A stretch of 64,000 nucleotides of DNA from a virus (taxonomy: Duplodnaviria; Caudoviricetes), in IMG/VR virus record IMGVR_UViG_3300009031_000368, positions 128,001-192,000 of that record; one strand, given 5' to 3'. A program made the translations under genes and the position numbers. Positions 8,437 to 16,165 of this stretch are shown here, piece after piece. Position 1 is the stretch's first letter. Every line of letters starts with the position of its first letter. The notes below the pieces were generated by a model. That model made no database searches, had not been told where the DNA came from, and saw only the letters and a program-made list of their open reading frames with translations.

Positions 8437-8874
8437 TTACCATACCTTCATTGCTTTGATTATTCCCGCCAACATGGATTGTTCATCCTCGATGCTGCAT
8501 CTCCTTTTACCAAGGAGTTTTTGATAATGTTCATGTACGGTCGTCAATACTTTGCTGATTACCGCATAGGTGTCATCATCAAATGATTCAAGTTCCAATA
8601 ACCTGTATCGATACGGATATCCGAACAATTGCCTTGTTGCGACCCAAACTTCAATTGTAACATCCCACGCAATTTGATCATTTACAAGTGGCTTCCTTGT
8701 ATTCATATTGGCATATAGAACGATTTGAAGCTTATTGACACAAATTGTTGTACTGGTTACCAACTTTGAAGCAATGACATCAATATCGCCGATCCGGCAA
8801 TATTCGGTGCCGACTTCGTCAATCAACATATAGACGGCATGCGCCTTATCCAGGATAGATTTCATGTCAACCAT
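8437..8874 (-). CDS. hypothetical protein (possible distant paralog of the two downstream genes)
   Basis: VATRQLFGYPYRY vs LATRKFLGFYYNY. Confidence 0.6.
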   Translation of the reverse strand: MVDMKSILDKAHAVYMLIDEVGTEYCRIGDIDVIASKLVTSTTICVNKLQIVLYANMNTRKPLVNDQIAWDVTIEVWVATRQLFGYPYRYRLLELESFDDDTYAVISKVLTTVHEHYQKLLGKRRCSIEDEQSMLAGIIKAMKVW

Positions 8875-10229
8875 CAGCCTTCAGCCTCCTCAGTATCAAT
8901 ATAGTCATCCTTCTGCTTGATGATTCCTTCAAGCACGCGAAAAATATAGCTTTTTTCTTTGTAGAACGAAACGGTTCCGTCCGGTTGTTCGACTCTGATG
9001 ACGACTCCTTCGTGTGGATGCCTGGCGTCTAGACCAGATGGGATTGCATCGGTTCCAGATTCACCATTGACCAATCGTTCTACCTTTGCTCGAAGCGCCT
9101 CCTCGTTGCCATCATACATAAACGATTCAATATGACGCACCGTTTCAACACCAAGCTCGCCGGATCGGCCGACAACCTGATACCATGAAAGATCAACCTC
9201 ATTACCGTCTTCAGCAACACGGGTGATGCGGTAAACCGTTAGCCTGGTTTGTGGCCCATTGGTGCCATCTGAACTACAGCCATAACTGTACTCAAAACAT
9301 TTACCAAACCGCTTTTCAATCTTCTTATCCTTCAATCCAGTGGTGTCATGACGGCCCATAATCGGCGCACCGGTATCGGTGTAACCGCAAAGCTCATAGT
9401 AGATGGCTTCGCCGGGATGAAGCGTTATATCTTTTACCGCATTGAATCGGAAGTTCTCGGTGCCGTAATACGAATTACCGGTTCGCCGTTCCAACACGAC
9501 GCGACGGCTACCATTCAGATATCGCCACGGATTGCGCTCAACTGATAACCCAACACGCCGTAACAGCCAATCACAACAACCGGCCAGACGTTTACGCCAG
9601 CCTGAAAGTTGAACAAGATCACGAACTTGTGCGGTACGCCCAGAAGTACCATGAAGCTTCTCGGTAATATGGATGATTGAACCAACCGGAATCTTGCTGG
9701 CGAAATACCTGAACTGTTGTGTTTCAATGTGTTCATGAAACATGACATTCTTTTTACGTGCAACCGGAGTAGACGCTGACTTCTTTGCACGCACGGTTGC
9801 CGGTGTTTCATATTTGGTGCAAACCACATGACCGTTCACGGTATCGATTAGATCTCCTTCTTTGAAGGAAGAAATATCACAGCCAGTCCAATCAAGCATT
9901 TCGACCGGACACCAAAAGCCATCCGATTTTACACCTTTCAGCTTAATGGCACGCACACGGCGGTTTGGTTCAAACATGCCACCGGCCGGCTTTCCGGTTT
10001 CATCTTTCCGTTTAACCAGATCCTTATTGGATGCAAAGGTTTCAGACAGGACACCATCACTGGGGAAGAATACGCCCAGTGTGCCATCCTGTGTTTCCTT
10101 GCCGACAATCACTTGATTGCCAAGACAATTCCCGATGGCCAACCGCTCAATCTTTTCGACAGAGCCATCCGGTTTAACGATATCCGGGAATGGACGTACA
10201 TGGATACTTGTTACGATTGCTTGATACAT
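8874..10229 (-). CDS. ATP-dependent RNA ligase, DRB0094/Rnl family
   Basis: N-terminal OB-like module (..QVIVGK..GTLGVFFPSDG); motif I TEKLHGTS, III YYELCG, IV EGVVIR, V YKEKS. Confidence 0.85.
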   Translation of the reverse strand: MYQAIVTSIHVRPFPDIVKPDGSVEKIERLAIGNCLGNQVIVGKETQDGTLGVFFPSDGVLSETFASNKDLVKRKDETGKPAGGMFEPNRRVRAIKLKGVKSDGFWCPVEMLDWTGCDISSFKEGDLIDTVNGHVVCTKYETPATVRAKKSASTPVARKKNVMFHEHIETQQFRYFASKIPVGSIIHITEKLHGTSGRTAQVRDLVQLSGWRKRLAGCCDWLLRRVGLSVERNPWRYLNGSRRVVLERRTGNSYYGTENFRFNAVKDITLHPGEAIYYELCGYTDTGAPIMGRHDTTGLKDKKIEKRFGKCFEYSYGCSSDGTNGPQTRLTVYRITRVAEDGNEVDLSWYQVVGRSGELGVETVRHIESFMYDGNEEALRAKVERLVNGESGTDAIPSGLDARHPHEGVVIRVEQPDGTVSFYKEKSYIFRVLEGIIKQKDDYIDTEEAEG

Positions 10230-10243
10230 AACGGACTCCTTAA

Positions 10244-10492
10244 TTACCACCAATAATAGATACGGACATTATCCAATGATTCATTTGGAAAGAAACCGGC
10301 GAGCAATTGCCGCAACTGTTTATACTCTGTTCTGTCGGCGCCAGGCAAATATAGGTATTCACCATTATGAGGCTCACATGCCTCTACGTATTGTGTCAAT
10401 TGCCGCAACTCTTCTTGAGTTTTATCCGATTCATCCAAAAATCTGTCTAGTTCAATATAATCAATTTCTTTTATGGTTTTAACTTTAAACAT
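10244..10492 (-). CDS. hypothetical protein
   Basis: 82-aa ORF. Confidence 0.6.
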   Translation of the reverse strand: MFKVKTIKEIDYIELDRFLDESDKTQEELRQLTQYVEACEPHNGEYLYLPGADRTEYKQLRQLLAGFFPNESLDNVRIYYWW

Positions 10493-13568: not shown

Positions 13569-14549
13569 TCAATGTGTGTAATGCGCTAGGATTGAATCGC
13601 TGTAGATTGATTCAACGTATTGCGTCCACCGTTCTAGATCGATTGAGCGCTGAAGCTTAGATGTCTGATGCGCGGCCAGAACACGATCCAATCGCTCTTC
13701 AATAAATACCTGAACTGTTTCATAACTGAAACAACCTGTTCTAATCTGTTTCAGCCATTCACAATTAGGCCGTGGCAGCGTGATGTGACCAGTAGTTAAC
13801 AGTTCTTCTGCTTCATCGGCAATCCGGACAGCATGCATCAACGCTTTGTAGTCGACACCATCATTGGTTAGAGTCTTTTTCGCCCGATCGCCGTATTGGT
13901 TCAACACTCTGTCATAGATCTTAAATGCTTCCTGCACGCTGAAATGAACCGGGCACTTCCTGCCGCAAACTTCAAGATGAATGATGGTATTGCCATGGTC
14001 CATCGTTATTGGAACAAGTTTGATGTCTTCATTCTGTGCCTCTAACACAAATCTTACAACCGGTGTCTCTTCAAGCTTAATGTGTTTATCTTGATCTCTA
14101 AGAAATTCAACAGTAAGCTGTGCGGCGGCAACCCGATTGCCCTTCACACAATACTTAGCGGCTTGAGTCTTACAGTAGCCTACAAATGCCGATGTGCCGG
14201 AATGAATCAAATCATTGCGATGTTCGGCGATAAATTCCCATTCCGGCGATGTAGTGGTCCAGGCATCTCGTGGAGCAAACAACATTTCAACCGCATTGGT
14301 TTGACCATCTTTCAACAGTACGGTCAAAAAGCTTTGTAGCGTAAACAGTTCAATGTCGGTATCGGTAGATGTATTTTTACCAGCCGATGATTTTGAACCG
14401 ACATTGATCGATGTCCGTGGCGCATTCTGCAACACCAAGTCTTTCGGCGATGGTACAAAAATGCCCTTGTAATCGGTATCTGATTCAGGAAGGTTGGTCC
14501 CGTAAAGCCGCGAACCAAAGATGGTTTGGAATAGGATCTTCATAATCAA
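13569..14549 (-). CDS. Pol-beta superfamily nucleotidyltransferase (RlaP / T4 NrdC.11-like)
   Basis: FGSRLYGTNLPESDTDYKGIF; D.KALMHAVRI C-terminal helix. Confidence 0.85.
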   Translation of the reverse strand: MIMKILFQTIFGSRLYGTNLPESDTDYKGIFVPSPKDLVLQNAPRTSINVGSKSSAGKNTSTDTDIELFTLQSFLTVLLKDGQTNAVEMLFAPRDAWTTTSPEWEFIAEHRNDLIHSGTSAFVGYCKTQAAKYCVKGNRVAAAQLTVEFLRDQDKHIKLEETPVVRFVLEAQNEDIKLVPITMDHGNTIIHLEVCGRKCPVHFSVQEAFKIYDRVLNQYGDRAKKTLTNDGVDYKALMHAVRIADEAEELLTTGHITLPRPNCEWLKQIRTGCFSYETVQVFIEERLDRVLAAHQTSKLQRSIDLERWTQYVESIYSDSILAHYTH

Positions 14550-14858: not shown

Positions 14859-16165
14859 TCACATGCTACAAATGATTTTTGAAAATAGGCGCTCAATTCG
14901 CCTCTCATGATCTACTGAACCGTCAACACCACTACCATGCGCAACTTCATGAACCAAAGTACCCAATAGCTGTTCACGGTCGGTGACGATTTTCCTAGCT
15001 AGATATATCACATCGTTGCAATATTGTCCTAATACATTTTTACCACAAAAATCAACCACGCTGACTTCAAATCGCCTCATGTCGACGGCCAAGCCAACTG
15101 TTTGGATTGCCCATAGGAAGTTATCGGTTTCATCGACAGTTAATTCATCGGCTGAATACATGCGTTCAACAGAATTGGCTTTCGTTTCCCTGATCGTTTC
15201 AATGTCGCCGATGACTTTGGAAACACTGTTCTGAATGGCGCGATTCACCACGATACCGCGCACGCCATAATGGCCAGATTCAATAGATTCAGATGTTGAA
15301 ACAACCGGAATCACGTTTTCGCCATGAATTGACTTAAAGTGTCGCGAGACGGCCTCATGCAGATTGTTTTTATCCGAATAGTCGTATTCAAACACCTTGC
15401 TTTCTCCAAGGCTGGTATTCAGGATATTGTAGATCTGTTCATCGGTGAATCGTCCAGCTTCAACGGCTTCAGATAATACAGCCTTAATTTGCGCCTTGAG
15501 CGACCACGGGTCGGCAAGTTTCCTGTCTCGATCCAGTCCAACATGCTTGAGATCGTATCCATACCGGTATGGTTCTGGAAGCTGGCGTACGAATAATCTC
15601 TTGACGAAAAGCTTATTGGTGTGCCTGGCATCGGTCAGAATACGTCCAGACGTGCATTCAATTGCATCAATCGGCGTATCGCTCAGAAATAACGTATTAG
15701 CTTTAAAATTTCAGTCCAGATTTCCTCTATGATTCCGGAGATCTCATACTCGATAAATGCCTCGCCGTCGCGAGAACAACAACGATGTGTATCAAAGAAT
15801 AGGATGTCGCTTTGGAAGTCGTCGCTCCATCTGATTTCCGGTGTCCAGTTTTCATTTCCATTCTTAATTACAACTTCATGCCCAAGCTTAAGAAGTCGAC
15901 AAACGGCGAGCTTGTAGCCTTCGCCGAAATGCCCCGCTGCCTCATCATCGCACCGCTTATCGGTGTTGCCCAGTACCAGAGATGATGGGGAAAGTATGGT
16001 ACCATCGGTACGAACCATCAATCTGTCAGTACGCGGAAAGTGCTTAACTGTCATCCGGTGTCCCTTGCGTTCCCCGTCCTGTGCATTCTGCAAGAATTCC
16101 CGGACGCATCCGGCAGGTGTCCAATCGATATAGTTAGGACTAATGGCAATCGGCAATGATGGCAT
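14859..16165 (-). CDS. GHKL-type ATPase fused to HExxH (zincin-like) domain, read via a -1 shift at about 15701-15707
   Basis: REFLQNAQD, LVLGNTDK, GHFGEGYKLA; -1 frame open from 15710 into the 14859-15395 ORF (LDRDR...TLVHEVAH); 435 aa if joined. Confidence 0.75.

Follow-up and report, generated by a model that had tools for sequence, protein, structure and literature searches.

A probable segregating frameshift allele, bearing a slippery heptamer, of a GHKL ATPase-zincin gene in a jumbo phage

Programmed -1 frameshift sites such as A AAA AAG in dnaX, the site of IS911 and G GGA AAG in lambda G/GT are heptamers of the X XXA AAG type, placed in the 0 frame within a short overlap of two frames. 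They are conserved across homologs and usually come with a hairpin or pseudoknot and/or a well-spaced SD-like element, the known stimulatory SD-like elements lying about 10-14 nt upstream. On the protein side, T4 rIIA (about 725 aa) and Hsp90/HtpG combine a GHKL ATPase domain with a middle domain, and to our knowledge neither rIIA nor Hsp90 has a C-terminal HExxH zincin domain; Wss1, SPRTN and SprT are minimal zincin proteases, and a GHKL ATPase fusion is foreign to the Wss1/SPRTN architecture. A further class is that of leaky frameshift mutations or 'savior' indels, for example the G-run mutants of herpes simplex thymidine kinase (Atkins et al. 2016, PMC5009743), in which a viral gene is disrupted by an indel of plus or minus 1 in a long homopolymer run and ribosomes that do not shift make a truncated fragment, the same runs being slippery for the ribosome and a trace of full-length protein possible.

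The locus considered here resembles each of these in part. It lies on the minus strand of the window, by which we mean the whole stretch of 64,000 nucleotides that was analysed (bases 128001-192000 of a 231.7-kb IMG/VR virus record with a completeness estimate of 76%), and it is an open gene split over two frames (Table 1). It shares with the dnaX, IS911 and lambda sites the type of heptamer, its 0-frame phase and the short overlap; unlike them, its motif is limited to some alleles of one strain cluster and has no predicted stimulator. As in the savior-indel class, an indel in homopolymer runs breaks a viral gene and leaves a truncated fragment, but the change here would be +2 in TT/AAA, and both frameshifting and any benefit of the indel are putative. 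The protein of the intact gene, a GHKL ATPase with a middle domain, matches Hsp90/TRAP1 chains and phage rIIA-like proteins by Foldseek, and differs from T4 rIIA and Hsp90/HtpG in having 434 aa and in ending in an HExxH zincin domain; this last domain, a predicted protease, is like the Wss1/SPRTN/SprT enzymes in its fold and its HExxH motif, with an identity of 14-18% to Wss1/SPRTN.

Table 1. Features of the split gene and its neighbours (positions in the window)
Feature	Coordinates	Strand	Remarks
ORF1	15683..16165	-	160 aa; complete GHKL (Bergerat-fold) N-terminal domain plus out-of-frame tail
-1 frame, 283 codons open	14859..15710	-	middle region like that of Hsp90, then the zincin domain at the C-terminus
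TGA closing the -1 frame upstream	15711..15713	-	5' limit for any shift
T TTA AAG heptamer	15701..15707	-	0 frame; X XXY YYZ phase (codons GAA ATT TTA AAG)
TTTT run, the putative lesion	15705..15708	-	two T's beyond the intact alleles, from protein comparison
GAGG	15724..15727	-	16 nt ahead of the heptamer; forms GAG GAA codons in the conserved protein
Wss1/SprT-like minimal zincin domain	14862..15161	-	VIA-align Z 11.2 to 5xbn_A, 100 residues
Nucleotidyltransferase	8874-10253	-	PHROG match
RNA ligase	13569-14549	-	PHROG match

ORF1 starts at an ATG (16165-16163) preceded by AGGAG at 16178-16174 and stops at a TGA (15685-15683) after a 6-residue out-of-frame tail (LKLIRYF), while the -1 frame contains HEVAH at 14951-14937 (-), inside the zincin domain, and has its 3' end at the TGA 14861-14859. 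In a preliminary description of this DNA the two frames had been read as one GHKL ATPase-zincin gene, split at a heptamer in an overlap of about 27 nt, and every coordinate given there for the ORFs, the overlap and the in-frame heptamer at 15707-15701 checks out on the minus strand, as does the GAGG at 15727-15724. The -1 frame is likewise free of stops from 15710 to 14859, into the HExxH ORF, and a -1 slip at the heptamer would give the 435-aa product already described, reading EILKANTLFLSD. Immediately 5' of the 0-frame TGA, T_TTC (15683-15688) is a second, weaker candidate for a -1 slip in the P site, at which the conserved ANTLF block would become LIRYF.

The surroundings of the gene show two further features. 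A palindrome that occurs genome-wide, GCAATYRATTGC, has a one-mismatch copy within the split gene, GCATTCAATTGC (+ strand), at 15654-15665, 36 nt past the heptamer in the 3' direction of the mRNA; this copy fits the array of palindromes, spaced by 2-4 kb (13237, 15654, 17472, 20438), and the window holds 25 matches with at most one mismatch against 1.3 expected. Downstream of the gene on the same strand, one ORF matches the nucleotidyltransferase phrog_388 (E 4e-75) and another the RNA ligase phrog_968 (E 7e-44), in what may be an RNA-repair region; six other neighbouring ORFs, tested against PHROG, gave zero matches.

The preliminary assignment of the two domains is borne out by conserved motifs, by Pfam matches in members of the family and by structure. 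The GHKL motifs are conserved in the family, namely the N-box ExxxNAxD (REFLQNAQD) and GxFGEG (GHFGEGYK), and Pfam finds HATPase_c in three members and HATPase_c_3 in two, the pieces of the window alone giving sub-threshold matches only (ORF1 scores 13.6 bits against HATPase_c, under the cut-off). The AlphaFold model of the intact allele (pLDDT 90) matches full-length Hsp90, TRAP1 and HtpG over the whole model, with Foldseek E-values of about 1e-10 to 1e-7 (best 2e-10), so that motifs and fold together are those of a GHKL (Bergerat-fold) ATPase. Among viral models, uncharacterised phage proteins come first (E 1e-25 to 1e-19), followed by rIIA-like proteins (E about 1e-8). Some homologs from cultured phages are annotated as RIIA lysis inhibitor or as histidine kinase-like ATPase; the protein nevertheless falls outside T4 rIIA membership, for which about 700-800 aa and the rIIA family profile are expected, its likeness to rIIA being structural only (TM about 0.38). 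Its best PHROGs, 6077 and 8203, are both unannotated, and in PADLOC ORF1 has a marginal match to TmtA (E 8e-4).

The C-terminal 100 residues, modelled separately (pLDDT 89), superpose on yeast Wss1 (5xbn_A) with an rmsd of 2.6 A, and also on S. pombe Wss1 (Z 9.6), abylysin (Z 8.5) and SPRTN (Z 7.5), with YbeY within the range of Z 9.6-7.5; Foldseek alone gives E 0.02-0.3 for this domain, and two homologs have weak Pfam SprT-like matches. The HExxH motif stands on the active-site helix of a zincin fold. In the family alignment H405, E406, H409, D414, G415 and H419 are near-invariant, and D414 and H419 are conserved candidates for the third zinc ligand. Our analysis thus supports a gene encoding a GHKL/Hsp90-like domain and a predicted Wss1/SprT-like zincin. 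The break falls in helix 147-155, after the ATPase domain, and ORF1 therefore consists of the whole GHKL domain and a short nonsense tail.

Using profile searches, we then placed the two pieces on their family. On phrog_6077, ORF1 covers positions 3-153 and the -1 piece covers 154-326; on the family profile their matches span positions 1-158 and 150-436. The two pieces therefore map head to tail on a single profile, and the frames join within one to two residues of the heptamer. A search with the -1 piece returned 14 proteins, 12 of which are full-length (431-470 aa) with no indel across the junction, and the other two, both of 320 aa, lack the N-terminus and contain the junction. One of these two has V as its first residue and was probably cut short by the end of its 1,360-nt contig. 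The second, P0012, comes from a 10,980-nt JGI contig of a lineage about 30% identical, begins at an internal Met some 35 residues ahead of the junction and is missing roughly the first 115 residues of the ATPase domain; in this other phage the family may have been truncated independently.

Wider searches gave the same picture. In cultured phages, tblastn found 110 records, each with a single-piece match from near residue 1 to beyond residue 280, and among 80 IMG/VR loci, collected with a 6-row family alignment (the 16-row alignment being too divergent), the match was stop-free in the 38 checked, with open frames of 351-441 codons. An exhaustive search with the family profile recovered 1,741 clusters at E<=1e-30, and in the best 150 of these the match was one stretch covering profile positions from about 1 to 436. 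Neither short N-terminal forms nor a split form of the gene were found when sought in other lineages. Megablast of the locus against cultured phages and the search of viral contigs with the window protein for related loci gave no match, and a scan of viral contigs and genome contigs for patterns of the junction sequence found nothing. In metagenome contigs, the search with the window protein had a sole match (Ga0209518_1068534, 1-1406; L002), which ends at residue 94, 5' of the site. This contig comprises the upstream region and the first 94 codons, with one synonymous difference (GAT to GAC) seen by eye in 1000-1406, and this near-identity means that a very close relative of the phage was present in that JGI metagenome sample.

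Outside the 90%-identity strain cluster, then, every full-length relative that we found is one continuous ORF, and neither the overlap nor the heptamer is conserved among homologs as would be expected of a programmed -1 site. The preliminary description had proposed programmed -1 frameshifting and had named homologs continuous at this point as the observation that would speak against it; the homologs were compared and are continuous, and so are alleles 98-99% identical, which lack the heptamer. Since the relatives are continuous at the junction, the programmed reading fails.

The broken form occurs within the strain cluster, which at 90% identity has 11 members. Three are intact proteins of 434 aa (P0003, P0021 and P0024, one contig each) with the junction EEIWTEIKANTLFLSD, reading TEIKANTLF, where the window reads TEILK/ANTLF; the heptamer is absent from these alleles, as judged from the protein. 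Three others are broken at 160 aa and all end in EILKLIRYF before the stop: P0001 (4 contigs, this record among them), P0017 (2) and P0019 (1). The remaining members are downstream ORFs that were called separately, either of 244 aa (P0018, P0020 and P0022) or of 178 aa (P0023 and P0025), and these five lie on contigs of the same lengths as contigs with the broken forms. The broken allele is thus the commoner one (7/10 contigs), and in none of its variants does the downstream frame carry a second lesion.

Removing two of the four T's from ACT GAA ATT TTA AAG CT of the window restores T-E-I-K-A, and the protein of P0024 differs from the hypothetical read-through product of the window only by I146T and the extra L154. 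The simplest difference at the DNA level would be a change from TT to TTTT, that is from ATT AAA to ATT TTA AAG, a 2-nt difference taken from the proteins and not read from the DNA. Because the more distant homologs equal the intact alleles in length here, the insertion is the derived state. The preliminary description had offered, as an equal alternative to programming, the loss of a base in the T/A runs by mutation or assembly error: an indel in these runs is supported, with a gain of two T's rather than a lost base as the simplest change, and the mutation stands as a real variant whereas the assembly error does not, given the several assemblies and several protein variants in which it recurs.

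A sequencing or assembly artefact hiding an intact gene in the true genome would suit a record assembled from a metagenome and an indel within short homopolymer runs. Read errors do not typically add two bases to a two-base run, however, matching downstream ORFs were called separately, and the identical break is found on seven contigs (JGI/IMG, ENA and Logan) that between them encode three different 160-aa proteins; as the same break recurs in three N-terminal variants from three data sources, we regard an artefact as very improbable indeed. Transcriptional slippage was also considered and rejected, runs of four T and three A being too short for it.

The same insertion explains the heptamer. 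When two T's are placed directly before an in-frame AAA, the A's fall at codon positions 3-1-2 and the X XXY YYZ phase follows automatically. In-frame heptamers of this form make up 0.23% of codons in 236 long ORFs of the 231.7-kb genome, and about 0.02 would be expected by chance in an overlap of nine codons, but this rarity is not independent evidence of programming, since one insertion both breaks the frame and makes the heptamer.

A selected form of -1 frameshifting, programmed or nascent, in which the TTTT allele is kept because it supplies much of the ATPase-only fragment together with a little full-length ATPase-protease, has nevertheless to be weighed. The heptamer is canonical, in phase and within the 27-nt overlap, the break coincides with a domain boundary, in the helix that directly follows the GHKL domain, and the allele is frequent, present in several backgrounds and followed by an intact downstream frame. 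A second candidate -1 site in this phage, G GGT TTT immediately 5' of a TAA, is at genome positions 81715-81908 (-), 46 kb before the window. Yet nothing is conserved beyond about 98% identity, all other relatives being continuous; the motif is missing from near-identical intact alleles; the extra residue of the product is found in no homolog; and the GAGG, at 16 nt, is farther from the heptamer than known stimulatory SD-like elements. Folding of the 113 nt from the heptamer onward gives -20.2 kcal/mol against -21.0 +/- 3.3 for shuffles (z +0.25), with no hairpin at the usual distance, in agreement with the preliminary remark that no strong downstream hairpin is evident. Sharma et al. (PMC4066793) count U_UU.A_AA.G as one of the motifs that work efficiently in E. 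coli and put shifting there at about 0.3% for the best heptamers when no stimulator is present, and some proven sites have no known stimulator (PMC4066793); these E. coli figures make a trace of read-through plausible here. On balance we consider selection for frameshifting unlikely. The broken allele being commoner and free of a second lesion leaves a small probability for a nascent case, in which the TTTT allele would be a programmed frameshift at its birth, a recent 2-nt insertion spread by a useful ratio of ATPase fragment to full-length protein; this we hold to be decidedly unlikely.

The fragments could also be two working genes, an ATPase fragment and a separately initiated C-terminal protein. 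ORF1 holds the whole GHKL domain, and the first start codon of the -1 frame in the window, GTG 15395, preceded at 8 nt by GGAG, could serve to initiate a 178-aa piece containing the zincin domain; gene callers did call such ORFs (P0023 and P0025, and the 244-aa P0018, P0020 and P0022). There is, however, no start codon near the ORF1 stop, about 100 codons of the conserved middle domain, including the LDRDRKLADPW block, would be untranslated in the window, the start varies by haplotype (TTG at residue 192 or GTG at 258), and other lineages have no split form. We therefore find such a split improbable.

The reading that we favour, and think probable, is that of a natural +2 frameshift allele segregating in a non-essential accessory gene of a jumbo phage and at most leaky by unselected -1 slippage. 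The intact gene would encode one 434-aa protein in which a GHKL ATPase domain resembling those of Hsp90 and rIIA is followed by a middle domain and then by a zinc-protease domain of the Wss1/SprT kind. In the broken allele, TT would have expanded to TTTT in the helix immediately after the ATPase domain, a position at which ribosomes would make the 160-aa ATPase-domain fragment and then stop, and -1 slippage by a small minority of ribosomes, itself unselected, may yield the 435-aa protein with one extra leucine. The heptamer would be a by-product of the insertion and not something built by selection for frameshifting. The presence of broken and intact alleles in near-identical phages suggests that the phage can do without the gene, or at times gains from losing it. 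Against this, the commoner broken allele and the downstream frame without a second lesion fit a maintained, still-expressed gene as well, and U_UU.A_AA.G is an efficient motif in E. coli, which is not necessarily the host of this phage; an intact downstream frame is also what a recent mutation would show at about 1% divergence. Rescue by a paralog within the record was rejected, as the family profile finds no other copy in its 231.7 kb (76% complete).

The haplotypes of the cluster bear on the origin of the broken allele. Three variants of the N-terminal protein and four of the C-terminal one accompany it, and these mirror the intact alleles; the N-terminal variants differ at residues 72 and 78 (C/G versus G/E) and 146 (I versus T). 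Each broken haplotype has an intact twin, that of the window resembling P0024, P0019 with P0020 resembling P0003, and P0017 with P0022 resembling P0021, a pattern that recombination, chimeric assembly of mixed strains or recurrent mutation could produce. The change T146I (codon ATA, 15728-15730) is private to the broken P0001 and P0017, being absent from P0019 and from all intact alleles, and sits 24 nt 5' of the TT insertion; as two broken haplotypes have it in common so close to the insertion, a single origin followed by exchange is favoured. Recurrent mutation or phase variation was considered and not adopted, since a gain of two in a 2-base run is not hypermutable, T146I is common to two broken haplotypes, and the pattern is accounted for just as well by recombination or by chimeric assembly of mixed strains.

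The main value of these observations is a correction: the gene should be annotated as frameshifted, with intact alleles elsewhere, and not as a recoding site. An indel in adjacent homopolymer runs can by itself create a textbook slippery heptamer, so that finding one where a frame breaks adds no independent support for programming; any trace of read-through here would plausibly belong to the 'leaky' or 'savior indel' class (PMC5009743). The family concerned, an Hsp90/rIIA-like ATPase joined to a Wss1-like zincin, comprises more than 1,700 clusters at 50% identity and is uncharacterised, and the co-circulation of both alleles in near-identical jumbo phages would mark it as dispensable or conditionally costly, a pattern typical of phage genes for host interaction.
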